A stretch of 32,000 nucleotides of DNA from Trichodesmium erythraeum IMS101 (GTDB taxonomy: Bacteria; Cyanobacteriota; Cyanobacteriia; Cyanobacteriales; Microcoleaceae): positions 810,001 through 842,000 of the forward strand of contig NC_008312.1 of NCBI RefSeq assembly GCF_000014265.1, read 5' to 3'. The position numbers and the translations under genes are program-made. Numbering within the stretch: position 1 is the first letter of the stretch; each line of letters opens with the position of its first letter. The notes beneath the pieces are model-generated. The model was not told the origin of the DNA, searched no databases, and worked only from the letters and a program-made list of their open reading frames with translations. Shown in pieces: positions 6,445 through 31,864 of this stretch.

Positions 6445-7824
6445 GTGGTAACGCTGTCTAATTCTATAATAGGGGGTCGTGACCAACAATCCACCGGTTT
6501 TGCTTGGTGGTCTGGAAACGCCCGTCTAATCAATCTATCTGGTAAACTGCTTGGTGCTCACGTAGCCCACGCAGGTTTAATTGTATTTTGGGCCGGAGCA
6601 ATGACTTTGTTTGAAGTTGCTCACTTTGTCCCAGAAAAGCCAATGTATGAACAAGGCTTAATTCTAATGCCCCACGTTGCCACTATAGGCTGGGGTGTTG
6701 GTCCTGGTGGTGAAATAGTTGACATTTTTCCATTCTTTGTAGTAGGCGTTTTACACCTAATTTCATCTGCTGTTCTGGGTTTGGGCGGAATTTATCATGC
6801 CGTTCGTGGCCCAGAAACTTTGGAAGACTATTCTTCTTTCTTTGGATATGACTGGAAAGATAAGAACCAGATGACTAATATTATTGGCTACCACTTAATT
6901 ATATTAGGTTTGGGCGCATTCTTATTAGTAATCAAAGCTGTGTTCTTGGGTGGTGTCTATGATACTTGGGCACCAGGTGGCGGTGATGTACGAGTAATTA
7001 CTAACCCTACTTTGAATCCTGCTGTTATATTTGGTTATCTACTTAAAGCGCCTTTTGGTGGTGAAGGCTGGATCATTGGCGTTAATAACATGGAAGATAT
7101 TATCGGTGGTCATATCTGGATTGGCCTAATTTGTATCTCCGGTGGTATTTGGCATATTCTAACTAAGCCTTTTGGTTGGGCACGTCGCGCTTTCATCTGG
7201 TCTGGAGAAGCTTATCTATCCTACAGTTTGGGCGCCCTGTCTTTGATGGGTTTAATTGCTGCCGCTTTCGTATGGTTTAACAACACTGCTTATCCTAGCG
7301 AATTCTATGGTCCTACTAATGCTGAAGCTTCTCAAGCTCAGTCTTTTGTGTTCTTAGTCCGTGACCAAAAATTAGGTGCTAATATTGGTTCTGCTCAAGG
7401 TCCTACTGGTCTTGGTAAGTACCTAATGCGCTCTCCCACTGGTGAGATCATATTCGGTGGTGAAACAATGCGTTTTTGGGACTTTCGTGGTCCTTGGTTA
7501 GAGCCTCTTCGTGGTCCTAACGGTTTAGACTTGAGTAAACTGAAGAACGATATTCAGCCTTGGCAAGTTCGTCGTGCTGCTGAGTACATGACTCATGCTC
7601 CTAATGGTTCTATCAACTCTGTAGGTGGTATTATTACAGATATTAACGGTTTCAATTATGTAAACCCTCGTGCTTGGTTAGCTGCCGCTCACTTTATTCT
7701 TGGTTTCTTCTTCTTAATTGGTCACTTGTGGCATGCTGGTCGCGCTCGTGCTGCTGAGGGTGGTTTTGAGAAGGGTCTGGACCGTCAAACTGAGCCAGTA
7801 CTATCTATGCCTAACCTTGACTAA
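6445..7824 (+). CDS. psbC: photosystem II CP43 reaction-centre antenna protein
   Basis: 459-aa ORF that is near-collinear with cyanobacterial CP43 as I recall it ([39 protein letters not shown] ... [25 protein letters not shown] ... [12 protein letters not shown]). The full-length large lumenal loop means it is not IsiA. The start is GTG at 6445, with GGAGG at 6431-6435. Confidence 0.95.
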
Positions 7825-16612: not shown

Positions 16613-17206
16613 TTAGGCGGATAATTTGATAAAGAACCAAAAATACCTTACTAAAGATACACCAGAAGGTAAGCGAGCATGGTCAAATTTGGTAAACAGC
16701 CTTTTAGCGGACATAATTGATGATCTATCCAGGTCTGCACCTGTTAAATTAGCGTTATAGAGTAAAGTATTACTTAGATTTGTATTTCTTAAATCTGCCC
16801 AGGATAGTTGGGCATCTTTTAAGTTGGCTCGGCTGAGGTTAGCCCCTTTCAGATTAGCTGAGTCCAAGTTAGCTCCTAACATTTTTGTTTTATGTAATTG
16901 TGTGTTCATTAATGAAGCTTCACTCAGATTCACTTTGTTGAGATTTACTCCGGTGAAGTTGATCCCATCTAATTTGGCTTTGAATAAATTGGGCTTAATT
17001 AATCGAGTTCTGCGAAAGTCTTTTCTGCCCTCTTCGAGAGCTAAGTGAAGCTGTTCATTGTTCAGGGTTTCTATGCCAAGTAGGTTATAGAAACCTGTGG
17101 CTAAATTCTCAATGAAATTTTGTTTTTCTTGCTTACTTGGAACCATTTTTGTGCTATCATGATCAAGTTTATATTTGAAATTTACTGGTAATTTTTGGGT
17201 AGACAT
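16613..17206 (-). CDS. pentapeptide-repeat protein
   Basis: 197-aa ORF with about 20 consecutive A(D/N)LxX pentapeptides (GINFTGVNLNKVNLSEASLMNTQL...GANLDSANLKGANLSRANLKDAQLSWADLRNTNLSNTLLYNANLTGADL). Its ATG overlaps the upstream stop codon (TAATG at 17204-17208). Confidence 0.9.
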   Translation of the reverse strand: MSTQKLPVNFKYKLDHDSTKMVPSKQEKQNFIENLATGFYNLLGIETLNNEQLHLALEEGRKDFRRTRLIKPNLFKAKLDGINFTGVNLNKVNLSEASLMNTQLHKTKMLGANLDSANLKGANLSRANLKDAQLSWADLRNTNLSNTLLYNANLTGADLDRSSIMSAKRLFTKFDHARLPSGVSLVRYFWFFIKLSA

Positions 17207-18897
17207 TAGTGATTTCCTATGATGGTGTTATATTTTTTTTGAATAGCTTTCTTTAGGCGATCGCCTAAATTAATACTGGAAGTTAATAGCTCTTGCAGGT
17301 AGCCAATTTGGCGAGTTGCTAATGATTGATTTACATGGGAATGTTGTAGATATCCTTGTACATATTGTATTGTTTTAATTAATTCCTTAACCTGAGATTC
17401 CGTCTGGAAGTATTCTAAGGCTAAGAGTATGATAGAATCACATCCTTGATGAATAAGGTTTTTAGCATCGTTAGCGGCAGTATTTTCTGGGTCGTTGATA
17501 CTATCTGTTAACTGCTGAAAACCATTTTTAATTTGTTCTACAGCAGTTTCAACTGTTTCTATATTGTCTCTTAAATGCTGGGATTTTTCGATATCTCTGG
17601 CAAATTTGACGTACTTAACAAAGGGTGGATAATTGCACTTTCCAGTGCGTCTTAGCTCGCTAAAAAATCCTCTTAACAGCTTCTTGTCCAGTTCTTGCAT
17701 GTCTGCTTGGTTGTTGTCTAAGCTAGAAATAGTCTTATTAATGAACACATCTCTGGCGTTAATTACTGCTGTACTTTTAGAAAGTTGAACATCTTCTCGT
17801 TTTGAATAAGAAATGGTGATCCAGATAGCTACAGTTGAGGTGATCACGGATATGCTCATAACAAATAGACTCTGTCCGAGGTCTGCCCACTGAAGGCTAA
17901 ATAATTTCTTGGTGAATAATACTATTGCTACTCTTGTTGCTTCTGTTCCAGATTTAATTTCTCCTTTTTCATTAAACCGTGAGTCATAAATTTTGGGTCT
18001 AACCGCTTTGAGGTAGACTAGATCACTACCATAGTTTTTGACTTCTTTTATTTTTTGCTGGTACTTTTCCTTGGGAACTTTGAGATCGTTATCCCTTATA
18101 GCTTCTAGCTCGTTAGCTTTAGGACATGCAGGCCATTGTTCTATGTCCTTGTTTTTATAGTAGCTATAACCGCCCAGGTTAAATCTATCTGCATATGGAC
18201 CATGAGCAGCTAGGTAGAGTTCATCCCTTTTGGGGTCGTTGGGGGGCAGTTGTTCGAGCTTACGCTCTAAGGTATCACATCTGTTGCGAGTTTTCTCCAG
18301 AGTTTTATTATTTTGAATATCTGAAATTTCCTTTTCCAAAGGTTCAAAAATAGATTCTTGAACTAACTGTTCTCCCAATTTTCGACTCAAACCGGATTGA
18401 TTTAATAGTAGTTCTGAACCGACTCCTGATGTGATGGTTAGGATGAGGTTGATGGCAATGAAACCGCTGCTACCAATTCGAGCAAAGCGTATGCTTATGG
18501 GTTGATTGGAGGCGGCACCGGTAGCGAGAGCGTTGCCTAGTTTAATTAGCCCTATGTTAGCCAATACAGCAATAGGCCAGGTGAGTATTCCCATGCTGTC
18601 GAACATAAAAATTAAGAATGGCAAGGTTGTGAATGCATTCCACCAATTGGCAAAGGTTGTAACGGAGGCTGTTACTAGAGAGGATTTTTCTAATTCTTTA
18701 GATACATAACCGGTGCCATGTAGTTCATTGGGATCGACGCAAACCAGATTTTTTAACCAATAACACCAGAAAAGAGGGTTCTTTTTAGAGGTTTTGTTCA
18801 CAGACTCTAGGTTTTCAAGCTGTGAGGGGCTTTGGAATTTTAGCCAAGAGATAATATTTTGAGTATTCGGTATTGTCGGTTGTTGTGGTAGTTTCAT
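17206..18897 (-). CDS. hypothetical membrane protein with a long coiled-coil region (DUF4407-like topology, unverified)
   Basis: 563-aa ORF with hydrophobic helices at about residues 85-125, 140-165 and 340-365. Charged heptad-like segments separate them, and the C-terminal ~190 aa are helical. I recognised no catalytic motif. The DUF4407 resemblance rests on topology only. Confidence 0.55.
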   Translation of the reverse strand: MKLPQQPTIPNTQNIISWLKFQSPSQLENLESVNKTSKKNPLFWCYWLKNLVCVDPNELHGTGYVSKELEKSSLVTASVTTFANWWNAFTTLPFLIFMFDSMGILTWPIAVLANIGLIKLGNALATGAASNQPISIRFARIGSSGFIAINLILTITSGVGSELLLNQSGLSRKLGEQLVQESIFEPLEKEISDIQNNKTLEKTRNRCDTLERKLEQLPPNDPKRDELYLAAHGPYADRFNLGGYSYYKNKDIEQWPACPKANELEAIRDNDLKVPKEKYQQKIKEVKNYGSDLVYLKAVRPKIYDSRFNEKGEIKSGTEATRVAIVLFTKKLFSLQWADLGQSLFVMSISVITSTVAIWITISYSKREDVQLSKSTAVINARDVFINKTISSLDNNQADMQELDKKLLRGFFSELRRTGKCNYPPFVKYVKFARDIEKSQHLRDNIETVETAVEQIKNGFQQLTDSINDPENTAANDAKNLIHQGCDSIILLALEYFQTESQVKELIKTIQYVQGYLQHSHVNQSLATRQIGYLQELLTSSINLGDRLKKAIQKKYNTIIGNH

Positions 18898-18917: not shown

Positions 18918-19300
18918 TATGGGTTTGATCAATTGGGTTGAGTGAGGAATATTTTTCTATCGGTGAGAAAATTGATTTTGTTGCAAAAATAATTTCATGG
19001 TTTTGTTTGGTTCGATTTTATAGCACTACCTATTTAAGGCGGTGGGCGGTAAATGCTGTTTACGAAGCATTGCTGTAGAAAGAATTTGTCTCAGGGATTA
19101 CTTTTGAATGCATTCTTGTGTTTAGCACTATATGGGTTTGATATAGTGAGTTGAGTTAGGGATATTTTTCTATCAACAGAAAATGAATTTTGTTGCAAAA
19201 ATAATTTTCTGGTTTTATTTTGTTGGGTTTTATAGCACTACCCATTTAGGGCAAGGGTCTTGGTAAGTCATGCTTGCGGAGCGTTTGCTTGGAAATACCG
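18918..19300. repeat. tandem direct duplication (2 x ~170 bp, period ~213 bp) of the leader/promoter region of the 17206-18897 operon
   Basis: Copy 1 spans 18918-19085 and copy 2 spans 19131-19300. Both share TATGGGTTTGAT...GTTGAGT.AGG.ATATTTTTCTATC...TTTTGTTGCAAAAATAATTT...TTTTATAGCACTACC.ATTTA.GGC, with about 80% identity over the first ~125 nt. The similarity also covers the CAT...TTGTGTTT immediately 5' of each copy. Confidence 0.8.
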
Positions 19301-19420
19301 AAATTTAATAAAGAATTATTTGCCTTAGAAACACTCAGCAATAAATGGATATATTTTTGAAGGGCTGAAAACCTGGTAGTTTTTTCGATAAAAAAAATGG
19401 TAATACCAATATGAATTCAT
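19289..19420 (+). pseudogene. fragment of an Rpn-family (PD-(D/E)XK, TIGR01784-type) nuclease gene
   Basis: Positions 19289-19362 are about 90% identical at the nucleotide level to 23513-23586 inside the intact Rpn gene, which encode LELPKFNKELSALETLSDKWIYF. Weaker protein-level similarity continues for ~60 nt (F.KGAENLV). There is no start codon, and stop codons interrupt the reading frame. Confidence 0.75.
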
Positions 19421-19609: not shown

Positions 19610-20479
19610 ATGGTCAAAACCAAAAACACCCTTTTGTCTCATACTGATTTAGTAAAATCCTATTTGGACATTGAAGTACTAGGGCAAGTTATGACAAAAA
19701 ATTCTGACTCACAAGATGAGTATCTAGCTAAAATTAGGAATGTTTGTAATGGGAGTGCTGAAGATTTAGAACTATATGAGGCGATCGCTAACTTTTGTCG
19801 GCAAACCAATGATAGAAAGCGCCGTCTAGCATTTGTTCCTTTATTTAAGAAAATTGAAAAATTAAGAGGACTAAAAAAAGTTAGCAATTCTAGCGAGTAT
19901 TATCATGACTACCAAGATATATTGCAGGAGACTTGGGAAGAGTTTTACAAAAAGTTTCCCGCTGAGTTTGAACCTGCAGGCCAATCTTTAAAAGGAAGTT
20001 TGGTAACTTGGATTAACGAAAAACTGCGTTTGAGATACAAGGTAATAGACTTATATCCCAAGTCTAGAGATGACAATAAAGGAAATAAACCCTTAACCCC
20101 AAAACAGAGATTTAACCAAATAATCAGAAGTAAACCAAAATCTCTGGATGCTCCTAATAGTACCAATGATTTTGATAATGATTTGACCATTGGCGATTTC
20201 TTAGAGAGTGAGGACCCTGGACCTCTGGAGGAGGCTATTGGGGAAGAGCAAAAACAAAACATTAATATGTTCTTGGAAATAGTCAAGGATAGTAAATATC
20301 ATATGCGCAGCTGTCCCGAATGTACTTTTCAGGCTGTTGCTCAACGTCTTTTTTTTGAGGAACCTTCGAAAAATTTGAAGCAAGTTGCATTGGAGTTCGG
20401 AGTTAATTATAGTAGTTTACGGACTTTTTGGCTACGGACTTGTAAGAAAATTTCTCAGGAACTATCCCCAGAACTATAA
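19610..20479 (+). CDS. hypothetical protein, divergent ECF/sigma-70-like (region 2 and region 4 HTH) with an N-terminal extension
   Basis: In this 289-aa ORF, the block DYQDILQETWEEFYKKF...GSLVTWINEKLRLRYKVIDLY resembles sigma region 2. An acidic linker follows, then FQAVAQRLFFEEPSKNLKQVALEFGVNYSSLRTFWLRTCKKISQEL resembles the region 4 HTH. This is a pattern-level call only. Confidence 0.4.
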   Translation: MVKTKNTLLSHTDLVKSYLDIEVLGQVMTKNSDSQDEYLAKIRNVCNGSAEDLELYEAIANFCRQTNDRKRRLAFVPLFKKIEKLRGLKKVSNSSEYYHDYQDILQETWEEFYKKFPAEFEPAGQSLKGSLVTWINEKLRLRYKVIDLYPKSRDDNKGNKPLTPKQRFNQIIRSKPKSLDAPNSTNDFDNDLTIGDFLESEDPGPLEEAIGEEQKQNINMFLEIVKDSKYHMRSCPECTFQAVAQRLFFEEPSKNLKQVALEFGVNYSSLRTFWLRTCKKISQELSPEL

Positions 20480-20514
20480 CAAAATTTACAAGAATTAATT
20501 CAGGAGAAATAACT

Positions 20515-21303
20515 ATGCAAACAGAAACTTTTGGGCTAAAAATACCTATTACTGAAGATGCTCGCCGATACGCTGAAAAATTTGCCGCTGAACAAAAAGG
20601 TAAAGCTAAAAGAACTAAGGTTTATTTAAACACTTTAGCTGTATGTGCGGTGCATAATTTCCTAAAAATTGTGCAGATAGAAACTGATCTAGAAAATAGT
20701 AGCGCCTGGAACCCCATAGAGCGTCTTTGTTATGATATAGCAGATTTATTTATTCCCCACATAGATATTTCTGTGGAATGTCGCCCTGTATTACCAGACC
20801 AAGAAGAAATAACTTTGCCACCGGAAGTTAGACGGGATCGGCTCGGTTATGTTTTTGTTAGGTTTGATAATGATTTACAGGAAGCAGAATTATTGGGATT
20901 TTTGTCTATTATGGATCCAGATGATGATTTTGAAGATTTAGAATTAGAGGAGTTGGAGCCTTTGGAGAATTTCTTGACTGTCTTGGAGCGAGTTGAGTAT
21001 ATGTCTCAGGTTTATGAGGACCCTGTGTTTGCAAAGGTTGAGGAGTGTTTAAATATAAAATCTCGACTGGAGTTGGTCCTTCAGTTGGAAAAAATACACC
21101 GCATGGAACCGCACTATTCCCACACGGCGAAGGCGACTGCGGTATTTTATAATTATCGCCCAGAGAGCAATTTGGCGACCGCGAGCAGAAGCAAGGAGAA
21201 AGTTAATGAGTTCACTGATGAGGAGTTAGAACAATTGCGAGAATTAGGAGATTTAGCGGAGGCATTAATGGAGAAATTGGCGCAGGTTTTGCCACAGAAC
21301 TAA
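20515..21303 (+). CDS. DUF1822-family protein (cyanobacteria-restricted, function unknown)
   Basis: In this 262-aa ORF, the N-terminal LKIPITEDARRYAEKFAAEQ...KVYLNTLAVCAVHNFLK matches my recollection of the DUF1822 N-terminal consensus. It is shorter than the usual ~390 aa and has a strongly acidic central segment (DPDDDFEDLELEELEPLE). It lies 35 nt downstream of the sigma-like ORF. Confidence 0.55.
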   Translation: MQTETFGLKIPITEDARRYAEKFAAEQKGKAKRTKVYLNTLAVCAVHNFLKIVQIETDLENSSAWNPIERLCYDIADLFIPHIDISVECRPVLPDQEEITLPPEVRRDRLGYVFVRFDNDLQEAELLGFLSIMDPDDDFEDLELEELEPLENFLTVLERVEYMSQVYEDPVFAKVEECLNIKSRLELVLQLEKIHRMEPHYSHTAKATAVFYNYRPESNLATASRSKEKVNEFTDEELEQLRELGDLAEALMEKLAQVLPQN

Positions 21304-21345
21304 TGGAGATTAGGCGATCGCTCACATCGCTATCATCACAACTTT

Positions 21346-21373
21346 GTAGGGATGTTCGGTGCAACGTCCCTAC
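21346..21373 (+). terminator. REP-like palindromic hairpin downstream of the DUF1822 ORF
   Basis: GTAGGGATGT (21346-21355) pairs with ACGTCCCTAC (21364-21373), giving a 10-bp stem with one G-T pair and an 8-nt loop. It lies 43 nt after the stop codon and has no U-tract. It resembles the short GC-rich palindromic dispersed repeats common in filamentous cyanobacteria. Confidence 0.3.
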
Positions 21374-21587
21374 TGTGGTTTACGGATATGAAAACTGTTG
21401 TCAAAGAGATGTTATTTTAGAGTAAAGTGCTTAGTTTAATGCAACACTTCTGGGAGTTCTATTGATAGAGGTTGGATTACTTTTAAATCAGAACGGTTGT
21501 ATAGCTTTTATATTTAGCAAGTGCAACATTTTTTTATTTCCACGGATAGTTTAATTATCATGTGAAGTTATTAATATTTTTAAAAGT

Positions 21588-22475
21588 ATGAAAGTTAATT
21601 TTTCGGAAGTGAGCCAACGCCATATCTGCATTGCTCTATTTATATTTTGTTCTCTTTTACAACGTTCGATTTCTCCTTTATTTTTACTTCCTTTGTTGTT
21701 ACAAGAAAAACGTAATTTATTGGGACAAATTGCTGAGGTTAAATTTAATAACGATAATAATAATTTACAATTTTTACAGCAACACAGTCAACAACTGAAT
21801 AATTTAGAGCGTCAATTTCAAAAGGGACAAAAAACTGTTGATAAACTACAACATAAAGTTCAGACTCAGGACACTCGCCAGAATTTAATTTTATCTAAAA
21901 GTAGTAAGCAAAGTAATCAAATTTGTTTGTTGGAAGATCGGATTAATTCTATTCAGGAAAGGTTTAAGTCGGTGCCTTCAAAGGTTGTGCCGATTCAACG
22001 TCGTACCCTATTGGCAATTGATTCTGCAAATTTGGATGGTGCTGCTAAAAGTTTGAATATGAAGGTTGATTATGAAAGATTAAAACGCTATGTTAATGTT
22101 CATTTTGGTTCTCTGGAAGCTCGAATTTATGTGGGGAAGTATGATAATAGTTCTCGGCAGAAATTGTGGTTTAATTACTTAGAAAAAAATGGATATGTGG
22201 TGAAGACAAAGCCTGTTACGGTCTATGGAAATACAGTTAAGGCTAATGTTGATGTGGATTTGGCTTTGGATATTAGGGAGCATGGGGTGAATTTCAAAAA
22301 TGTGGTTTTATGTAGTGGGGATGGTGATTATTTGCCACTTGTTGAACAATTACAAGGGTTGGGTATTAAGGTGATAGTTCTTGCTTCCCCAGGACATACT
22401 AACCACTTTTTGCAAAGGCAAGCGGATGAGTATATTAGTTTGATTGATATTATGGGGGAAATTAGCGATCGCTAA
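21588..22475 (+). CDS. NYN-domain (LabA/DUF88-like, PIN-fold RNase) protein with an N-terminal Q-rich coiled coil
   Basis: In the C-terminal ~160 aa, LLAIDSANLDGAAK ... VDVDLALDI ... VLCSGDGDYLPLVEQLQGLGIKVIVL carry the conserved acidic residues of NYN/LabA domains. The start codon is uncertain, because the first ~40 codons are hydrophobic and low-complexity. Confidence 0.75.
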   Translation: MKVNFSEVSQRHICIALFIFCSLLQRSISPLFLLPLLLQEKRNLLGQIAEVKFNNDNNNLQFLQQHSQQLNNLERQFQKGQKTVDKLQHKVQTQDTRQNLILSKSSKQSNQICLLEDRINSIQERFKSVPSKVVPIQRRTLLAIDSANLDGAAKSLNMKVDYERLKRYVNVHFGSLEARIYVGKYDNSSRQKLWFNYLEKNGYVVKTKPVTVYGNTVKANVDVDLALDIREHGVNFKNVVLCSGDGDYLPLVEQLQGLGIKVIVLASPGHTNHFLQRQADEYISLIDIMGEISDR

Positions 22476-22684
22476 TCAATTATAGGTATAAATAAGTTAG
22501 GAAAAAGTAGGGGCAAATCGCAGTTTTACTGGTGGATATTAAACGCCCCTAAATGAGTCAGAATAGAAGAGGGGTAAGTTTTTTTATTACTAATTATTTC
22601 CATATAATATTATATCCTAATAATCCTTTAAAATGGTAATCAAAATTTAGTGGTTTTCTAAAAATTAGAGGAGGTAATTATCGA

Positions 22685-23020
22685 ATGGATATCATCAGTA
22701 AATATCAACAAATAATCGAGAAAATAATCGGCGACTATGCTAAGTTGCGCTATTCCTATAGCGAAGTAGAGAGAAGAACGGTTTTCGACCGAGAACAAAA
22801 GCATTATTTATTAATGATTTTGGGAGTGGAAGGTCATAAAATGGTTCATGGTTGCATACTTCATTTGGAAATTAGAGATGATAAAATTTGGATTCATCGC
22901 GACGGAACTGAAGATGGTATTGCAAGAGAATTGTTAGCAGAAGGAGTTCCCAAGGACAAAATTGTTTTGGGATTTTATACTCCTGAAAAACGCAAGATAA
23001 CTGATTTTGCAGTTTGTTAA
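22685..23020 (+). CDS. xisI: XisI-family protein (fdxN-element excision controlling factor-like)
   Basis: The 111-aa ORF has YQQIIEKIIGDYAKL ... HYLLMILGVEG.KMVHGCILHLEIRDDKIWIHRDGTEDGIARELLAEGVPKDKIVLGF, which is the typical XisI signature. A strong SD (GAGGAGG) is present. No xisH lies upstream. Confidence 0.85.
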   Translation: MDIISKYQQIIEKIIGDYAKLRYSYSEVERRTVFDREQKHYLLMILGVEGHKMVHGCILHLEIRDDKIWIHRDGTEDGIARELLAEGVPKDKIVLGFYTPEKRKITDFAVC

Positions 23021-23049
23021 TTTGATAAATATTTAAAGGAGAAAATTTT

Positions 23050-23985
23050 ATGAGATTTATTAGTCCGAAAACTGACTTTGCTTTTAAAAGAATCTTCGGT
23101 TCTAACCGCAGTCAAAAAATCCTGATTAGTTTTCTCAATGCTATAGTTTATGACAATCAAAATATTATCCAATCTCTAGAAATTATTGACCCCTATAATG
23201 CTGGCTATACTAGCACTATTAAGGATACTTATCTGGATGTGAGAGCTTTATTAGATAATGGTTCAACAGTTATTATTGAGATGCAAGTCTTAAACGTAGA
23301 AGGTTTTGAAAAACGAGTAATTTATAATTTGGCAAAAACCTATGGAAGTCAATTAAGTCTAAGAACGGAACAACCAAGATTACAACCATTTATAACCTTG
23401 ATAATTACGGATTTTTTGCTATTTCAAGAGAGTGGCAAAATGATTAATAAATTTAGATTTAAAGAAGACACAGAGTTCTTTAATTACCGAGATGAATTAA
23501 CTTTAATATTTTTGGAACTACCGAAATTTAATAAAGAATTATCTGCTTTAGAAACACTCAGCGATAAATGGATATATTTTCTTAAATCTGCTCCTAGTTT
23601 GGAGATAATACCCTCTTCATTGGGAGAAGTATCAGAAATAGAAGCAGCATTAAATATCGCTAACCGAGCTGATTTAAATAATCAAGAACTAGAGGAGTTA
23701 CATAAACAAGAAATATTTATTGGTGATAGACAAGGAGAGGTGATTTTAGCTAAACAAGAGGGCGTAAAAGAAGGAGAAGAACAAGGGAAAATTCAGCAAG
23801 CAATTAAACAAGTATTGCGTCTAGCTCGGCGAATATTGGGGGAAGTTTCACCGGAAATTCAGGCTCGAATACAACAGCTATCTTTAGAAAAATTAGATTT
23901 ATTAGCAGAAGAGATATTTGAACTGACTACTATGGAAAATCTGGTGAATTGGTTAGAGACTGGAACAGAAAGTTTGGAGAAATAG
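23050..23985 (+). CDS. Rpn-family recombination-promoting nuclease / putative transposase (PD-(D/E)XK, TIGR01784) with a DUF4351-like tail
   Basis: The 311-aa ORF has the N-terminal ISPKTDFAFKRIFG, the nuclease core YLDVRA...VIIEMQV and LELPKFNK...SDKWIYFLK. The C-terminal tail is IQARIQQLSLEKLDLLAEEIFEL..NLVNWL. Confidence 0.85.
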   Translation: MRFISPKTDFAFKRIFGSNRSQKILISFLNAIVYDNQNIIQSLEIIDPYNAGYTSTIKDTYLDVRALLDNGSTVIIEMQVLNVEGFEKRVIYNLAKTYGSQLSLRTEQPRLQPFITLIITDFLLFQESGKMINKFRFKEDTEFFNYRDELTLIFLELPKFNKELSALETLSDKWIYFLKSAPSLEIIPSSLGEVSEIEAALNIANRADLNNQELEELHKQEIFIGDRQGEVILAKQEGVKEGEEQGKIQQAIKQVLRLARRILGEVSPEIQARIQQLSLEKLDLLAEEIFELTTMENLVNWLETGTESLEK

Positions 23986-24105
23986 CTCCAGAAGTTCGGA
24001 CTCAAATAGAGGGGTTATTTCTAGAAAATTTTAGATTTTTTAGGTGATGATTTTTTTGATTTGATTTAGCAACTATGTTAGTTTGGAAGAACTACTTAAA
24101 TCAAT
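23973..24105 (+). pseudogene. degenerate, frame-shifted tandem copy of the Rpn C-terminal (DUF4351-like) segment
   Basis: Positions 23973-24105 align with 23836-23972 at about 65% nucleotide identity. Translated across three frames, the copy reads FGEIAPEVRTQIEGLFLENF / GDDFFDL / ATMLVWKNYL, against LGEVSPEIQARIQQLSLEKLDLLAEEIFELTTMENLVNWL in the intact gene. Confidence 0.65.
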
Positions 24106-24223
24106 AAATCAAATCGCTGAATATAGGGAGGGATTTATGATTTTACCTGACCTATGCGGAGTTTACTATAAGTAATATTAATTTCGCAAAATATATTACA
24201 ATTTTTTTATGTGAGTGAAGTTA

Positions 24224-27200
24224 ATGAATAATAATCAACAAAGTTATCATCGTTTAATTGCACAGTTACGTCACTGCGCGGGTGAGGCAGAAGTTAAGCA
24301 GGTTTTAAATAGCTACCTTGAACTAAATACTTCGGAGTTATTAGAGGTAATGGCTCAGGAGGTTGAAGGTTTGAGAGATAATATGGACTGGGATGGGGCT
24401 AATTCTCTGTTAAGTCTGGCCCTAGAGGTGGGAGATGTGTTGGGAAGTTCTGAGAGGGAGGTTTCTCTAAGGAAGGAAATTGGGGATTTTTTGAGCAAAA
24501 TGGGGCGGCGTGAATATGAAGTTAGTCAGTTTTCTTGGGCAGTGCAGTTTTATGAACTGACTTTAAGGATATATCGAGAGATTAAGGACCGTCCAGGGGA
24601 AGTTGATGCTATTAATGGTTTGGGTAATAGTTATAGGTTTTTGAGAGAAAGGGAAAGGGCAACTGCTCTTTTTCAAGAGTCTTTGGCTATTGCTAGGGAA
24701 ATTGAATATGGCCAGGGGGAGGTTGATGGCCTCTATGGTTTAGGTGCCATGGAGCATTTTTTGGGAGAATATGAGTCGGCAAAAGCTTATGTTCAAGAGG
24801 CTTTAACTATTGCAGAGGCGATCGGGTATACAAAAGGGAAAGCTAATGCTTTTGATGGTTTGGGTCATGTTTGTGGAGGTTTGGGAGAATACGAAGAGGC
24901 GATTAATTTCTATCAACAGTCTTTACCTATCTTCCGAGAAATCAAAGATCGTAAAGAGGAAGCCAGTGTCCTGAATAATTTGGGTGCTGCTTACTATTCT
25001 TTGGGGAAATACGAAACGGCGATTAATTTCTATCAACAGTCTTTACGTATCTGCCAAGAACTCAAATATCGTAAAGGGGAAGCTTATGTTCTGAATAATT
25101 TGGGTCTTGATTACAATTCTTTGGGGCAATATGAAACGGCGATTAATTTCTTTCAACAGTCTTTACCTATCTACCGAGAAATCAAAGATCGTAAAGAGGA
25201 AGCCAATGTCCTGAAGAATTTGGATGATGCTTACTATTCTTTGGGGCAACACAAAAGGAGGATTGATGTCCTTAAACAGTCTTTACCTATCAAGCAAGAA
25301 CTCAAAGATCGTAAAGGGGAAGCCAGTGTCCTGAATAATTTGGGTGTTGCTTACCATCATGTAGGGCAATACGAAAAGGCGATTAATTTCTATCAACAGT
25401 CTTTATCTATCAATCAAGAACTCAAAGATCGTGAAGGGGAAGCCAATGTCCTGAATAATTTGGGTTATGCTTACGATAATTGGGGGCAATACGAAACGGC
25501 GATTAATTTCTATCAACAGTCTTTACCTATCTCCCGGAAAATCAAAAATCGTGAATATGAAGTTTGTGTCCTGAATAATTTGGGTGTTGCTTACTATAAG
25601 TTGGCGCAATACGAAAGGGCGATTAATTCCTATCAACGGTCTTTACCTATCTCCCGGGAAATCAAAAATCGTGAATATGAAGTTTGTGTCCTGAATAATT
25701 TAGGGGATGCCAACTACTATCTAGGACAACACCAAGAAGCCATCGACCTTTACCACAAATCTCTCGCCATCTCCCAAAAATACCAATACCGTTGGGCAGA
25801 AGCAGACTCCCGCAACGGTCTAGGCCGCATCTACTACTCCCAGGAAAAATACCAACCTGCCCTAGAATTTTATCAAGAATGCTTTGCCATCAAAGCAGAA
25901 ATAGGAGACATTCCCGGAGAAGCCAAAGGCCGAACCAACGTCGCCCTCGCCTACAAATCCCTCCAAGAACCCCAACGAGCCATCGAATTCCTCCAACAGT
26001 CCTTAGAAATTTTCCAACAAATCTCCGACCCAGAAGGACAAGCAGACTGCCAAAATCACTTAGGAGTAGCCTACCAAGACCTAAAACAACACCAACAAGC
26101 CAGAAATCACTACCAAGCATCCCTGGAAATAGCCACCCCCGAAGGAATGCCCACAATTTGCCTCAATGCCGGCCAAAACTATGGCCACCTAGAATTTCAA
26201 GAAAACAACTGGTCAGCAGCGATCGCTCCCTACCAAAAAGCCATCGAAGCAGCAGAAATACTGCGAGTCCGTTCCCTCACCGATAACCGCCGGCAAAAAG
26301 TAATGATTGATGCCATAGAAATATACGCCAACACCATCCAATGCCACATCAACCTCCAACAATACGACCTCGCCCTCGAATACACCGAACGTTACCGCTG
26401 TAAACAACTAGTAGACCTAATAGCCAGTAAAGACCTCTACCAAGACGAGAAAATGCCCGAAAAGGTGAGAAACCTAATGCAAGAATTCGAAAAACTCCAA
26501 GGGCAAATAGAAAACATTCGCGATCGCGACACCAGGGAAGACAGTAACAATAACCGCAGTAGCATCCTCCCCGCAACCAGATATTGGCGTGCCCAAAACG
26601 AAATTCGCAACAAAAGCATCATCGAAAAGGAAATCGCAAAAAGAAAAATCTTGGAACAAATCAGAAAACAAGACCCAGTCATCGCCCAAGGCATCCAAGT
26701 AGCCCACCTAAAATTTAGCCAACTGCAACAACTCATCAACAACGAACATAGTGCCATCCTCAGTTTTTACAGCACCAAAACCGACACCCACATATTCATC
26801 CTGCGGCAAAACAGCATCCAGCTCCACTCCTGTCCCCAGCAAGGCAGAGACAACCTGCAACAATGGCTCAAAGAAAACTGGTTCAACCTCTACGTACCCG
26901 ACAAAAACAAAAACGACAACGAGAACAAAGAAAACTACCAAAAATGGCAGCAACAAATGCCCGACCTTCTCGCAGAACTAGCCAACCGCTTAAACATCCA
27001 AAAACTGATCCAGAATCACCTAGAAGATATCGAGGAACTGATCCTCATCCCCCACCAGCAACTACACCTAATCCCCCTAGGCGCCCTGCCCATCAGTGAT
27101 AGCGAATATCTCCATGACAAATACCTCATTCGCACCTTAGCCAGTTGCCAGATCCTGAGTTTTTGCCAAGACCGCGTTCAACTCCAAACAGCTCCCACCT

Positions 27201-28024
27201 ACGGCATCGTGGAAAACACACAACTCGACCTACCCTTCAGCCAATTAGAAGCCGAAACCGTCGCCCAACTATGTCAAGTCAGCCCCGACAAACATCTCCA
27301 AGGAGCAGAAGCCACAGTCCCCAAATACAGAGAACTCTTAAAACAAATCAACCGACTCCTATCGAGTCATCACGCCGTATCTCGAATAGACAACAACCTA
27401 GAGTCAGCCCTCATGCTAGCCGAAAACCAAAAAATAACCTTAGGAGAACTCCTCACCCCCGCCTATCGTTTCCCGGAATTAGAAGAAGTATTCCTCTCGT
27501 GCTGCGAAACCAACCTAGGCACCCCCCAACCCACCGACGACATGCTCACCCTGAATACAGGTTTCCTATCTGCAGGTGCCCGTGGAGTGATCAGCACCCT
27601 CTGGGAAGTAGATGACTTAGCATCCTGCATTTTTTCCATTATCTATCACCGACTGCGGGCAGAAGGTATAGACAGAGTCAGGGCAGTGCAAAAAACCCAA
27701 CAAACCATGGTCAAGATGACAGAAAAGCAACTCCAACAAGAAATCAAAACATTCAAAAAGCAACAGAAAAAAAGATACAAAAGGGAATTAGAAGCACTCA
27801 CCGAGGAACAAAGGGACCTCGAAACTCAAGAACCTCAAAGCAAAGATTCTCCAGAATACCAAGCCTGGAAGGAAAAGCTAAATAATGCCATCCAAAAATA
27901 CGTTCGCAAAGACCAAGAACAACGGGAGTTTGAACTTCGCTTAAAAGAAGCCCGCAAAAGAGAATATCCATTTTCCCATCCAGTGTATTGGAGTAGTTTT
28001 ATTTGTGCAGGTTTGAGAGATTAA
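24224..28024 (+). CDS. TPR-repeat / CHAT-domain (caspase-like) protease, 1,266 aa
   Basis: There are about 14 consecutive 40-aa TPR-type units (…AINFYQQSLPI.REIKDRKGEA.VLNNLG.AY..LGQYE…). A helical middle region follows, then a C-terminal CHAT domain with the His (LLSSHHAVS) and Cys (EVFLSCCETNLG) dyad contexts and the terminal HPVYWSSFICAG motif. I prefer the ATG at 24224; GTG at 24215 is an alternative. Confidence 0.9.
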   Translation: MNNNQQSYHRLIAQLRHCAGEAEVKQVLNSYLELNTSELLEVMAQEVEGLRDNMDWDGANSLLSLALEVGDVLGSSEREVSLRKEIGDFLSKMGRREYEVSQFSWAVQFYELTLRIYREIKDRPGEVDAINGLGNSYRFLRERERATALFQESLAIAREIEYGQGEVDGLYGLGAMEHFLGEYESAKAYVQEALTIAEAIGYTKGKANAFDGLGHVCGGLGEYEEAINFYQQSLPIFREIKDRKEEASVLNNLGAAYYSLGKYETAINFYQQSLRICQELKYRKGEAYVLNNLGLDYNSLGQYETAINFFQQSLPIYREIKDRKEEANVLKNLDDAYYSLGQHKRRIDVLKQSLPIKQELKDRKGEASVLNNLGVAYHHVGQYEKAINFYQQSLSINQELKDREGEANVLNNLGYAYDNWGQYETAINFYQQSLPISRKIKNREYEVCVLNNLGVAYYKLAQYERAINSYQRSLPISREIKNREYEVCVLNNLGDANYYLGQHQEAIDLYHKSLAISQKYQYRWAEADSRNGLGRIYYSQEKYQPALEFYQECFAIKAEIGDIPGEAKGRTNVALAYKSLQEPQRAIEFLQQSLEIFQQISDPEGQADCQNHLGVAYQDLKQHQQARNHYQASLEIATPEGMPTICLNAGQNYGHLEFQENNWSAAIAPYQKAIEAAEILRVRSLTDNRRQKVMIDAIEIYANTIQCHINLQQYDLALEYTERYRCKQLVDLIASKDLYQDEKMPEKVRNLMQEFEKLQGQIENIRDRDTREDSNNNRSSILPATRYWRAQNEIRNKSIIEKEIAKRKILEQIRKQDPVIAQGIQVAHLKFSQLQQLINNEHSAILSFYSTKTDTHIFILRQNSIQLHSCPQQGRDNLQQWLKENWFNLYVPDKNKNDNENKENYQKWQQQMPDLLAELANRLNIQKLIQNHLEDIEELILIPHQQLHLIPLGALPISDSEYLHDKYLIRTLASCQILSFCQDRVQLQTAPTYGIVENTQLDLPFSQLEAETVAQLCQVSPDKHLQGAEATVPKYRELLKQINRLLSSHHAVSRIDNNLESALMLAENQKITLGELLTPAYRFPELEEVFLSCCETNLGTPQPTDDMLTLNTGFLSAGARGVISTLWEVDDLASCIFSIIYHRLRAEGIDRVRAVQKTQQTMVKMTEKQLQQEIKTFKKQQKKRYKRELEALTEEQRDLETQEPQSKDSPEYQAWKEKLNNAIQKYVRKDQEQREFELRLKEARKREYPFSHPVYWSSFICAGLRD
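24885..25710 (+). repeat. seven near-identical in-frame 120-nt tandem units (TPR units 4-10 of the CHAT gene)
   Basis: GATTAATTTCTATCAACAGTCTTTACCTATC recurs exactly every 120 nt, at 24901, 25021, 25141, 25261 (diverged), 25381, 25501 and 25621. Units 9 and 10 share an identical 50-nt block coding NREYEVCVLNNLG. Confidence 0.9.
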
Positions 28025-29417: not shown

Positions 29418-30297
29418 TACTTATTATTACCTTATTAATAAAGAACTTTAACTATAGCTATACAATAAACTATACACTATAAATTAAAACAAAACTCAAA
29501 CATTTAAAGAGCTGTAAAACAAGCTTTGCAAATCTTAGAGTAAAATTAAAAAAACCAATTTTTTTATTTGTTTCATCAATAAAACTAGATGAAAGACAAA
29601 CAAATTGTCCTGACTGTGGTTTATCAATCTTATTGAGACTTAAACGCCAGTATAAATTTAAGAAATGCGGTTAGCTGGACCGTGAATGCCTGTGGATGAG
29701 TCACTGCCGACGGCCTCAGTTGAAGCAGGAAGTAAACATCAATTTGTCCGTTATGTGAGGCTTTGTATCAGTTTTATAGAGCAGGCCTATTAATATTCTT
29801 AGACTATTCAATGACAGAGTTAACAAAAATGACTATGTACTCACTCCTTTAGCCTAAGTATTTGTACCAAAAATTGATATTTCTCGTGTTAAGACTTACG
29901 TATTAAGACTTACGCACGCAGATAAAACGATACATCGTTTGCAGGGAGTTCCTCACTATATATAGTGGTTATGCATCCTGTTATCATAACTGAGTATCCA
30001 AATTTGATCTGACTGAGTTTGAGAATTTATAAAAGTCCGCGCCCTGTTTGCATAGTACTATATTACTAGACCAACACAGCTAAAATATTGCCATAAGCGT
30101 AAGTAGAGTTTCAGAACTTAGCCAGATATCATGATATGAATTCCCATGCATGAATGCTATGCTTAGGCAAAAATTCAGAAATTTAAGTAATTAACACAAA
30201 AGGAATAACTTTTTTATACCATTAACGCTCTTGAATTTTGTTAATTATTATTATGTTATGTGAACATTGTATACAGCATCCTTATTGCCACTTTGTC

Positions 30298-30419
30298 ACA
30301 CCCCATAACCCCATACCCTCAAACCCTCACAGTTTTATACCCTCACACCCTCAAACCCTCAAACCCTCAAACCCTCACACCCTCAAACCCTCACAGTTTT
30401 ATACCCTCACACCCCCCCA
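30298..30419. repeat. C-rich octamer tandem repeat tract (CCCTCA[A/C]A)n with a ~60-nt higher-order repeat
   Basis: Positions 30298-30419 read CACCCCATAACCCCATA CCCTCAAA CCCTCACAGTTTTATA CCCTCACA CCCTCAAA CCCTCAAA CCCTCAAA CCCTCACA CCCTCAAA CCCTCACAGTTTTATA CCCTCACA CCCCCCC. The motif CCCTCACAGTTTTATACCCTCACACCC occurs twice. The complementary strand carries GGG runs spaced by 5 nt. Confidence 0.9.
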
Positions 30420-30598: not shown

Positions 30599-31864
30599 AT
30601 GCAACGACCAATTGGTATTGATTTATTTGCAGGCGCAGGAGGTATGACTCTTGGATTTGAACAAGCAGGATTTGATATACCTATTTCCGTAGAATTAGAC
30701 CCTATTCACTGTGCTATTCATAAGTTTAATTTTCCCTTTTGGTCCATATTATGTCGTAATGTTGTCGAACTCACAGGGAATGAAATTAGAGAGAAATTAA
30801 ATATTCCAAATAGAGAAATTGATGTAATTTTTGGAGGTCCTCCATGTCAAGGATTTTCTCAGATTGGAAAACGTGCTTTAGACGATCCTCGAAATGCGCT
30901 TATATCTCATTTTTTACGAATAGTTTTGGAATTAAAACCCAAATATTTTGTCATAGAAAATGTTAAAGGTTTAACTGTAGGAAAACATCAAATTTTTCTT
31001 GAGGAAGTTATTAATAAATTATCTAAAAATAGTTATCAACTACAACTGCCTTACCAAGTTTTAAATGCTGCTAATTATGGTGTACCACAACACCGAGAAA
31101 GATTATTTATACTAGGATGTAAAAAAGGTTTAAAATTACCAAATTATCCACAAATTCAAATACATAAAAAATCAGAAGCCTATATAAATGTCTGGGATGC
31201 AATAGGAGATTTACCAGAAGTAGAAAATTATCCAGAATTATTAGAAATAGACTGGGTAAAAGCAGAAAATGACTATGATAAACCAAGTGAATATGCTAAA
31301 AAACTCCGTGGAATTGAATATTTTAACAATGATTATTCTTATGAACGTGAATACGACCAGACAATATTAACCTCTAGTTTACGCACAAAACATACACAAC
31401 AATCAATAGCAAGATTTGATGCTACAGCACAAGGAAAAACTGAGCCAGTAAGTCGCTTTTATAAACTGAATCCTCACGGTATTTGTAACACACTCAGAGC
31501 AGGGACTCCAAGTAGTAGAGGTTCATATACTTCTCCTAGACCAATACATCCATTGACACCCAGATGTATCACAGTTAGAGAAGCAGCAAGACTACATTCA
31601 TATCCTGATTGGTTTAGATTTCATGTGACAAAATGGCATGGTTTTAGACAAGTAGGTAATTCAGTTCCACCACTATTAGCAAAAGCAGTTGCTCAAGAAA
31701 TTATTCATGCTTTAAATATTCAACCATTTAAACCTACAAAGACAGAATATGAGTTAGAAAATCTCAAAAATTTAGAGCTTAATATGTCTAGAGCCGCCGA
31801 TTTATATGGTATTGATAGATATACTATTGCACCCAGACTAAGAAAGTTAAAATTAAATAATTAA
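30599..31864 (+). CDS. DNA (cytosine-5)-methyltransferase
   Basis: The 421-aa ORF has motif I DLFAGAGG, motif IV GGPPCQGFS, motif VI ENVKGL, motif VIII QHRERLFILG and motif X GNSVPPLLA. A variable target-recognition region separates VIII from IX/X, and there is a ~60-aa C-terminal extension. Confidence 0.9.
   Translation: MQRPIGIDLFAGAGGMTLGFEQAGFDIPISVELDPIHCAIHKFNFPFWSILCRNVVELTGNEIREKLNIPNREIDVIFGGPPCQGFSQIGKRALDDPRNALISHFLRIVLELKPKYFVIENVKGLTVGKHQIFLEEVINKLSKNSYQLQLPYQVLNAANYGVPQHRERLFILGCKKGLKLPNYPQIQIHKKSEAYINVWDAIGDLPEVENYPELLEIDWVKAENDYDKPSEYAKKLRGIEYFNNDYSYEREYDQTILTSSLRTKHTQQSIARFDATAQGKTEPVSRFYKLNPHGICNTLRAGTPSSRGSYTSPRPIHPLTPRCITVREAARLHSYPDWFRFHVTKWHGFRQVGNSVPPLLAKAVAQEIIHALNIQPFKPTKTEYELENLKNLELNMSRAADLYGIDRYTIAPRLRKLKLNN

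Follow-up and report, generated by a model that had tools for sequence, protein, structure and literature searches.

The closest described counterpart of the locus analyzed here is a gene neighborhood reported by Kaur, Iyer, Burroughs and Aravind (eLife 2021; PMC8195603), in which a sigma factor of the extracytoplasmic function (ECF) type, a DUF1822 protein and an EACC2-caspase protein stand together; the last of these combines a constant N-terminal EACC2 with a caspase domain and a variable C terminus, and signaling from the caspase to the sigma factor was proposed on computational evidence only. Our literature search found no other substantive mention of DUF1822 beyond that paper, and Kaur et al. 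2020 makes no mention of sigma, CHAT or NYN. Precedents for proteases that release sigma factors are Craspase, CalpL/T/S and SAVED-CHAT/PCaspase; in the first, Csx29 cuts Csx30 and CASP-sigma is released, and PCaspase-type proteases cleave many targets (bioRxiv 10.1101/2023.06.23.546230). Here, we describe a locus within a 32-kb stretch of the Trichodesmium erythraeum IMS101 genome (32,000 nucleotides [nt], hereafter the window) that encodes, on one strand, a divergent sigma-like protein, a DUF1822 protein and a protease with an array of tetratricopeptide repeats (TPR) and a C-terminal CHAT domain (TPR-CHAT). The sequence-only reading of this stretch knew of no described system with this composition, a statement that the 2021 report of an ECF sigma factor, DUF1822 and a caspase-domain protein overturns. 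The window holds a variant of a cyanobacterial sigma-like/DUF1822/CHAT-protease system that was previously known by computation only.

An exact look-up identifies the first genes of the run as Tery_0524 (the 289-amino acid [aa] open reading frame [ORF]), Tery_0525 (DUF1822) and Tery_0526 (NYN); no paper naming Tery_0524-0530 was found in the literature search. With ORFs called from the first start codon after a stop, the six same-strand ORFs claimed in the sequence-only reading were recovered with the same coordinates and domains, except that the first has no Pfam match. The DUF1822 ORF does begin 35 nt past the preceding stop codon, and the 1,266 aa given for TPR-CHAT matches its length from the first ATG (1269 aa from the GTG). 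The locus had also been called free of CRISPR (short palindromic repeats that are clustered and regularly interspaced), and indeed no CRISPR array and no cas gene or domain is present in the 32 kb. A single sizeable tandem array occurs in the window, formed by the 120-nt TPR unit within the CHAT gene, and the remaining ORFs are housekeeping genes.

To place these genes in context we used a forward set of 80 DUF1822-centered genome loci, with 81 DUF1822 genes, and a reverse set of 80 metagenome loci centered on the window-type CHAT domain; the genome collection as a whole yielded at least 583 confirmed DUF1822 stretches. A sigma-like homologue lies directly upstream and on the same strand in 78 of the 81 cases, at a median gap of 2 nt, and the sigma-like gene and DUF1822 are a tightly coupled pair. 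The protease that accompanies the pair depends on the build of DUF1822. Hidden Markov models (HMMs) of its C-domain and of a distinct C-terminal module (CTM) divide the family into proteins with an N-domain and C-domain (N+C, n=57), with all three parts (N+CTM+C, n=19) and with the N-domain and CTM only (N+CTM, the window type, n=29). A CHAT protein whose first ~360 aa are constant and whose C termini vary, which we call the constant-module CHAT, directly follows 60 of the 81 DUF1822 genes (Pfam CHAT was confirmed on examples). It is found directly downstream of 47 of 50 N+C, 9 of 15 N+CTM+C and none of 27 N+CTM genes, an association with the C-domain that is highly significant (Fisher test, 1e-16). 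Close TPR-CHAT proteins, defined by an E value below 1e-90 to the window CHAT model, show the converse distribution, being present in 0/56 N+C, 5/15 N+CTM+C and 7/10 N+CTM loci of the genome set. Counted per locus, 12 of 24 with a CTM contain one, compared with 0 of 57 without (Fisher test, 3.8e-8). These 57 CTM-negative loci amount to about 1 Mb of cyanobacterial DNA and served as an internal background; the lack of TPR-CHAT in them answers the concern that CHAT genes occur in high copy number. Thus, the CTM goes with TPR-CHAT, and the C-domain goes with the constant-module CHAT lineage.

The reverse set supports the same pairing. Among window-type CHAT loci with at least 1 kb of upstream sequence, 36 of 41 harbor a same-strand CTM gene, ending no more than 1.8 kb upstream in 30, and these CTM genes comprise 23 DUF1822 genes and 13 other fusions. 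The sigma-like gene followed by DUF1822 is found directly upstream of TPR-CHAT in 16 of the 32 loci whose upstream sequence spans 2 kb or more. Gene order is not fixed: in Okeania sp. KiyG1 an orthologous, frameshifted TPR-CHAT gene lies directly upstream of the sigma/DUF1822 pair, while TPR-CHAT is directly downstream of the pair in loci L053 and L073 and convergent in L021, so the linkage persists despite rearrangement. The co-occurrence of sigma-like, DUF1822 and CHAT genes, on which the sequence-only reading had staked its case, is well above the internal background and far beyond chance. The linkage is real and specific, and its general form has been described already. TPR-CHAT is very probably the cognate partner of the window DUF1822. 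Because the protease tracks the CTM specifically, a protease partner or substrate is the best reading of DUF1822, and this half of the earlier proposal for its role holds up, whereas for the other half, an anti-sigma factor, no similarity to a known anti-sigma fold was found.

CHAT loci that seemingly have no partner bear the CTM on other proteins, and the CTM HMM identifies 74 CTM-bearing proteins in total. In one arrangement the module is fused to an Xre-type HTH_3 protein of 236-247 aa, encoded after an overlapping Gp49/HigB-like gene (L090, L115, L117, L118, L121); Pfam confirms both assignments. In another it forms a stand-alone protein of 155-162 aa with no other recognized domain (L085, L090, L115, L135), and a few further CTM-bearing proteins fall outside both types. 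Alignment of the 155-aa family with DUF1822 columns 172-263 by hhalign gave a probability of 90% and an E value of 1.6e-6. The stand-alone CTM gene beside TPR-CHAT is always preceded by a gene for a 231-238-aa protein without a Pfam match, a candidate third kind of cargo; tried as a sigma factor, the 231-aa protein reached an hhalign probability of only 0.4%. The CTM is a portable helical module of ~110 aa that occurs almost exclusively beside the window-type protease lineage.

Tery_0525 is a short-form DUF1822 that matches positions 1-161 of the family profile plus a second stretch. Its AlphaFold2 (AF2) model is confident (predicted local distance difference test score [pLDDT] 88.4; predicted template modeling score 0.83) and shows an alpha+beta N-domain (aa 8-145) followed by a C-terminal part made of helices (aa 150-258), in which a loop at approximately aa 215-234 is of low confidence and the segment carrying a conserved arginine has pLDDT values of 52-71. 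This loop arginine, R225 in the Tery_0525 sequence 'ATASR|SKE', is the most conserved column of the CTM, at 93% across 74 CTMs, in a loop that is otherwise variable. The final helix of the module, of the type ELxDLAEELLEKLAEIW, follows the arginine loop.

The protease is arranged as an N-terminal helical head, the TPR array, a linker and coiled-coil region, and the C-terminal CHAT domain (aa 926-1266 of 1269, E 3.2e-34; nt ~26990-28012). The histidine and cysteine contexts of the domain are retained, as had been noted from the sequence: H1053 in 'SSHHA' and C1097 in 'LSCCET' align with the canonical 'THG' and 'SAC' of CHAT proteins, and the catalytic dyad is intact. Among solved structures, this CHAT domain has relatives only in the type III-E Csx29 proteins (E 2e-7). 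The TPR array is built from a 120-nt (40-aa) tandem unit at 24880-25775, present in 6.8 copies at 84% identity. The orthologue in another Trichodesmium (L002, 15284-17687) contains 20 copies at 89% identity, with protein flanks that are 97-99% identical. TPR repeat number is changing fast between strains, and such a copy-number shift between near-identical flanks fits a fast-changing sensor surface.

These features are consistent with a mechanism in which a keeper protein is cut to free its cargo. The DUF1822 N-domain would keep the sigma-like protein inactive, and TPR-CHAT would dock on the CTM. The fast-evolving TPR array would sense a signal, either an invader or a stress cue, upon which the activated protease would cut the CTM at the conserved loop arginine, R225, and the freed sigma-like factor would redirect transcription. 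In the Xre-CTM version a toxin would be freed by the same logic, while the membrane-tethered NYN RNase may be an optional effector or a second substrate. By analogy, the Xre antitoxin-CTM protein beside a HigB-like toxin supports the notion of a keeper protein with a cleavable handle. We infer this full cleavage-and-release sequence with a confidence just short of an even chance. A broader proposal, to be taken as one tentative whole that may well not hold, is that of a CRISPR-independent, Craspase-like family for immunity or signaling in which TPR-CHAT cuts a portable CTM handle at the arginine loop. The keepers and cargoes of such a family would be the DUF1822 N-domain and sigma-like protein, the Xre antitoxin and HigB-like toxin, and a coiled-coil protein and the 231-aa cargo, and the DUF1822 C-domain would be the equivalent handle for the other CHAT lineage. 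With the handle grafted on different keepers, one protease design could release either a transcription factor or a toxin.

Several observations weigh against the cleavage-and-release mechanism, and the first concern the sigma assignment, which is weak. Pfam yields no match to Tery_0524 even at E 10, and the profile of its family, compared with PDB sequences, finds no sigma factor and weak helix-turn-helix (HTH) matches only. Its AF2 model is poor (pLDDT 53) because only 12 homologues (single-sequence query) or 15 (profile) were available. The evidence for a sigma factor is concordant, however. The NCBIfam model TIGR02937 (sigma70-ECF) aligns Tery_0524 aa 93-285 to model positions 23-165 with E 5.9e-6 and 26 bits, below the cut-off of 42.9 bits, and in the protein a sigma2-like block at approximately aa 93-150 is joined by a linker, in which an SLD motif is conserved, to a sigma4-like HTH at aa ~240-285. 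Among 33 family members, four match TIGR02937, all below threshold; the only specific sub-threshold matches of the 33 are sigma models, such as TIGR02937, SigF, SigK, RpoH and SigW, and Pfam finds generic HTH families only. Alignment of the family with Escherichia coli RpoE (a query sequence identical to PDB 1or7_A) by hhalign runs collinearly through sigma2 and on to the sigma4 HTH (E 0.0017, probability 15%). Nearly all of the 50 PDB matches listed by Foldseek for the poor model are chains of RNA polymerase-sigma complexes, the best at E 5e-3 with a template modeling (TM) score of about 0.23. The Okeania homologue carries the NCBI name sigma-70 family factor, and the family was called ECF sigma by Kaur et al. 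(2021; PMC8195603). Hence, the earlier call of a sigma factor is upheld in part, by weak but concordant similarity and with no curated family match, and Tery_0524 is probably a highly divergent sigma-70-family protein. HMMER searches over 1.84 billion representatives found only 79 clusters related to the family at E ≤0.001, which indicates a small, specialized family; Tery_0524 alone, as a phmmer query, gave matches in 71 loci. Its true start is probably M28 (nt 19691, giving 262 aa), because RefSeq and the Okeania homologue use that start.

The sigma-like gene and its surroundings show some additional features. The sequence 'HMRSCPEC' (H-x3-C-x2-C; nt 20300-20323, aa 231-238) lies just ahead of the sigma4-like HTH, and the family consensus at this site is 'CHPRxxPECNCQ'; the site may be sensitive to metal or redox state, an unusual feature to have inside a sigma factor itself. 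When the upstream regions of 101 sigma-like genes were compared by k-mers for a common promoter motif, only HIP1 and a clade-specific terminator-like hairpin emerged. This hairpin has the sequence GGGGGGTGCTTTC...GGAAGCATCCCC, a T-run behind it and a TATAAT-like hexamer in its loop; located ~30-60 nt 5' of the sigma-like start, it may be an attenuator. It is conserved in N+CTM+C type loci (L007, L008, L012, L015, L016, L020, L024, L025, L031, L040, L067, L132, L149, L152, L159) and absent from the window. Between the genes for the membrane protein and the sigma-like protein, the intergenic DNA contains a direct repeat of ~125 nt (18918-19040 and 19131-19252; 86-87% identity, 212-nt period). 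The 20-nt core of this repeat is found nowhere else in the window, and the repeat could be a regulatory or repeat element.

The DUF1822 protein and the linkage counts provide further points on the same side as the divergence of the sigma-like protein. Searches with the Tery_0525 model against the PDB by Foldseek returned nothing significant (best E 0.043). DUF1822 was considered as an anti-sigma factor, by an ASD/ZAS fold or an HxxxCxxC motif, and the only match was Rsd at E 4.7. The suggested likeness to Csx30 or Csx31 was not borne out, as no such chain is among the PDB fold matches listed, from a library whose Csx30/Csx31 content is unconfirmed, and the DUF1822 profile found neither among PDB sequences. 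The weak top PDB matches are all PD-(D/E)XK folds (DpnI, HincII, Hjc and the Eco15I N-domain), and in BFVD the N-domain matches small phage proteins (E values down to 3e-5, TM score about 0.6), one of them named a restriction endonuclease. D77, E88 and C89 are nearly invariant in the family, and in the AF2 model D77 and E88-C89 are on adjacent strands, resembling a PD...ExK motif. The modeled N-domain thus looks restriction-endonuclease-like, and with such a fold its role may differ from sequestering a sigma factor. With regard to linkage, the locus counts ignore shared ancestry: related Microcoleus genomes contributed several of the loci, and genome contigs recur in some cases among the metagenome contigs (L104 equals L011). 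Five of the 41 CHAT loci have no CTM gene at all, TPR-CHAT also occurs beside complete sigma/DUF1822/constant-module-CHAT triads (L007, L020), and in the window DUF1822 and the protease lie about 2.9 kb apart, with three genes in between. Finally, the short DUF1822 proteins do not form one clade but are scattered in a rough neighbor-joining tree of the N-domain; nearest-neighbor concordance for the TPR-type partner is 18/31.

Among the alternatives to cleavage and release, the one that survives best, though we consider it improbable, is that the CTM works as a docking adaptor, which recruits TPR-CHAT into a complex and is itself no substrate, with the protease then cutting the sigma-like linker, the NYN coiled-coil tether or, in abortive infection, host proteins. 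Co-occurrence of the CTM with TPR-CHAT demonstrates partnership, not cleavage; the sigma-like linker (aa 145-204) is long and modeled with low confidence, the N-terminal region of NYN is tether-like, and PCaspase-type proteases have many targets. However, the best-conserved residue of the CTM is an arginine in an otherwise variable, disordered loop, a pattern more in line with a scissile site than with a docking surface, and NYN is absent from most short-form loci.

A second, distinctly less probable alternative is that NYN and TPR-CHAT are self-contained and merely share a variable island with the sigma/DUF1822 pair, with no direct biochemical link. The three intervening genes of the window are in keeping with this view, as are four loci (L007, L012, L018, L020) in which 2.8-4.4 kb separate NYN-TPR-CHAT from a sigma/DUF1822 pair with a CHAT partner of its own directly downstream. 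Moreover, when DUF1822 is the sole criterion, none is found in 7 of the 20 TPR-CHAT loci with both flanks informative. Yet most of these seven seemingly empty loci carry the CTM on another protein directly upstream, and the order sigma-DUF1822-TPR-CHAT recurs with gaps of ≤311 nt in more than 16 loci. The partner choice described above also runs counter to simple co-location, as the short DUF1822 goes with the other CHAT type in none of 27 cases and almost always with the window type, and no close TPR-CHAT occurs in the 57 CTM-negative DUF1822 loci.

It is similarly improbable that DUF1822 is an effector nuclease, which the sigma-like HTH protein targets to DNA or inhibits and which a CHAT cut unleashes to damage DNA, since its PD-(D/E)XK-like top folds, phage-protein matches in BFVD and adjacent D77/E88 strands stand against PDB matches that are not significant, a lysine-equivalent R90 that is cysteine in many members, short forms included, so that a canonical active site is not conserved and nuclease activity is doubtful, and the treatment of the partner as a sigma factor by both Kaur et al. 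2021 and the NCBI annotation.

Table 1. Features of the T. erythraeum IMS101 locus (window coordinates) and of the 231-238-aa genes in other loci
Feature	Position	Strand	Remarks
Pentapeptide-repeat protein	16613-17206	-	overlaps the 563-aa gene
563-aa membrane + coiled-coil protein	17206-18897	-	PADLOC C3a124, E 1.7e-68
Sigma-70/ECF-like protein, Tery_0524	19610..20479	+	289 aa; sub-threshold TIGR02937
DUF1822 ORF, Tery_0525	20515-21303	+	262 aa; Pfam PF08852, E 1e-56
DUF1822 N-terminal alpha+beta domain, aa 1-145	20515..20949	+	conserved D77, E88, C89
CTM, C-terminal module, aa ~146-259	20950..21303	+	four helices, low-confidence loop, final helix
Terminator-like hairpin, 11-bp stem	21346..21373	+	consensus scan, weak T-tail
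NYN/LabA-type RNase-domain protein, Tery_0526	21588..22475	+	Pfam NYN, E 1.6e-27
XisI	22685-23020	+	E 1.4e-41
PDDEXK_2/Rpn plus DUF4351	23050-23985	+	domain match
TPR - coiled-coil - CHAT protease	24215..28024	+	Pfam TPR + CHAT; H1053/C1097
231-238-aa protein, L085	5785-6501		
231-238-aa protein, L090	11042-11737		
231-238-aa protein, L115	4158-4853		
231-238-aa protein, L135	6550-7254		

The coordinates of the locus are collected in Table 1. The hairpin behind DUF1822 may close the sigma-DUF1822 transcription unit; promoter and terminator consensus scans of the locus gave matches no more numerous than in shuffles. Tery_0526, which also matches the PADLOC 'NYN LabA-like' entry (E 1.6e-26), has a hydrophobic N-terminal segment, a coiled coil and the NYN domain, and its acidic motifs 'IDSANL', 'DVDLALD' and 'SGDGD' align with those of homologues. 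A NYN protein of the same layout is encoded on the same strand beside a TPR-CHAT or sigma gene in L007, L011, L016, L018, L020, L031, L044, L149, L152 and L159. It is usually just upstream of TPR-CHAT, in loci from Chroococcales, Aphanothece, Brasilonema, Microcoleus and metagenomes. As most short-form loci lack it, NYN is an optional accessory.

The genes between NYN and TPR-CHAT differ in this respect. XisI and Rpn are found there only in Trichodesmium (the window, L002 and L003), and elsewhere NYN directly precedes TPR-CHAT; both genes are insertions outside the module. The idea that the interleaved nucleases are hitch-hikers is thus correct for XisI and Rpn, whereas NYN recurs in several lineages. 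XisI was rightly described as lone: no ORF of at least 30 aa separates it from NYN, which leaves it without an adjacent XisH. Decayed remnants of Rpn/PDDEXK_2-DUF4351 flank the locus at approximately 19305-19355 and 23949-24047. One encodes 'ELFALETLSNKWIYF', similar to 'ELSALETLSDKWIYF' of the intact Rpn, and the other, an ORF of 32 aa, is similar to the DUF4351 tail, which suggests repeated Rpn insertion and decay at this site.

Divergent from the module, the genes for the 563-aa and pentapeptide-repeat proteins are conserved beside it, among the sampled loci, in Okeania sp. KiyG1 only, and their membership of the module is uncertain. C3a124 is a family of four members that Shah et al. 2018 (PMC6546367) included among possible type III-B CRISPR accessories, with no function assigned to it. 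In Microcoleus-type loci two genes are located between TPR-CHAT and the sigma gene (L007 6713-9128, L020 6259-8607, and equivalents in L012, L015 and L040). The first encodes a transmembrane, vWA-like protein of ~245 aa with an invariant DxSxS motif, and the second a membrane and coiled-coil protein of 436-465 aa with a C-terminal tandem 'GDLGDAA' repeat. Relaxed HMM searches for divergent copies of the sigma-like protein or DUF1822 in these genes found nothing, and the ~450-aa family is unrelated to the 563-aa protein of the window; the two genes may be further components of larger islands.

Elsewhere in the window, the Rfam IsrR antisense RNA (RF01419; 185 bits, full length) lies at 6853-7039 on the minus strand, inside a gene of the photosystem II family for an IsiA-like protein (6445-7824). 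This RNA, already known to regulate the iron-stress response, has no connection with the module. A short tandem array of AACCCTCA-like units, with periods of 8-32 nt, occupies 30296-30414, just 5' of a C5 DNA methyltransferase gene (30599-31864).

To our knowledge, every protease demonstrated to date to release a sigma factor acts downstream of CRISPR type III sensing, as in Craspase, CalpL and SAVED-CHAT. If the proposed mechanism is true, a sigma-release output would here be wired to a protein-repeat sensor without any Cas component. The rule that connects DUF1822 domains to protease partners yields a prediction that can be tested at the bench, with R225 as the candidate scissile residue and C1097 as the catalytic one. 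Our finding also bears on the biology of Trichodesmium, a bloom-forming nitrogen fixer that has been studied for caspase-like cell death, although we know of no CHAT protease from it with assigned substrates.

Comparison with the EACC2-caspase neighborhoods (PMC8195603) shows the same adjacent pair of sigma-like and DUF1822 genes next to a protease of the caspase superfamily (CHAT), and the EACC2-caspase architecture was recovered in about 60 of our 80 forward loci, the constant N-terminal module being equated with EACC2 from its position and description and not from a reference sequence. However, the window protease has the reverse layout, with TPR N-terminal and CHAT C-terminal, and no variable region C-terminal to CHAT. 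It also lacks a detectable counterpart of the constant module: the HMM of the ~360-aa module, which occurs in 60 loci, has no match in it even at E 10, and hhalign (probability 0.4%) aligns the His/Cys segments alone. Likewise, the window DUF1822 carries the CTM in place of the usual C-domain, and the family is labeled 'a TPR protein' in PMC8195603, whereas our model has an alpha+beta N-domain plus a helical bundle.

Classical pairs of ECF sigma and anti-sigma factors, such as RpoE-RseA with DegS/RseP, are controlled by regulated proteolysis. As in these pairs, the window has a sigma gene followed by a co-translated partner gene, and proteolysis of the partner is the proposed trigger. In contrast, the partner has no recognizable anti-sigma domain or transmembrane segment, the locus itself encodes the protease, which is caspase-like and cytoplasmic, and the sigma-like protein is too divergent to reach the threshold of any curated ECF model. 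In the CalpL-CalpT-CalpS system (type III-B; SAVED-Lon protease, anti-sigma and sigma) and the SAVED-CHAT/PCaspase/PCc-sigma system, too, a protease tied to defense is encoded together with a sigma factor and with a partner, which in these systems is cleaved. These systems are triggered by cyclic oligoadenylate via SAVED; the window contains no SAVED domain, cyclase or CRISPR system, and the protease families or architectures, as well as the partner proteins, differ.

Type III-E Craspase (Cas7-11, Csx29, Csx30, Csx31 and CASP-sigma/RpoE) provides the remaining comparison. The window has no Cas7-11, cas gene or CRISPR array in its 32 kb, so activation cannot be RNA-guided; DUF1822 is not recognizably Csx30- or Csx31-like among the PDB fold matches listed, and the TPR array is much longer and variable in copy number. 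Nevertheless, the protease has the same layout of N-terminal TPR and C-terminal CHAT, a small partner protein and an ECF-type sigma factor are encoded alongside it, and the Craspase logic, in which the partner is cut and the sigma factor freed, is the model that we propose for the window.

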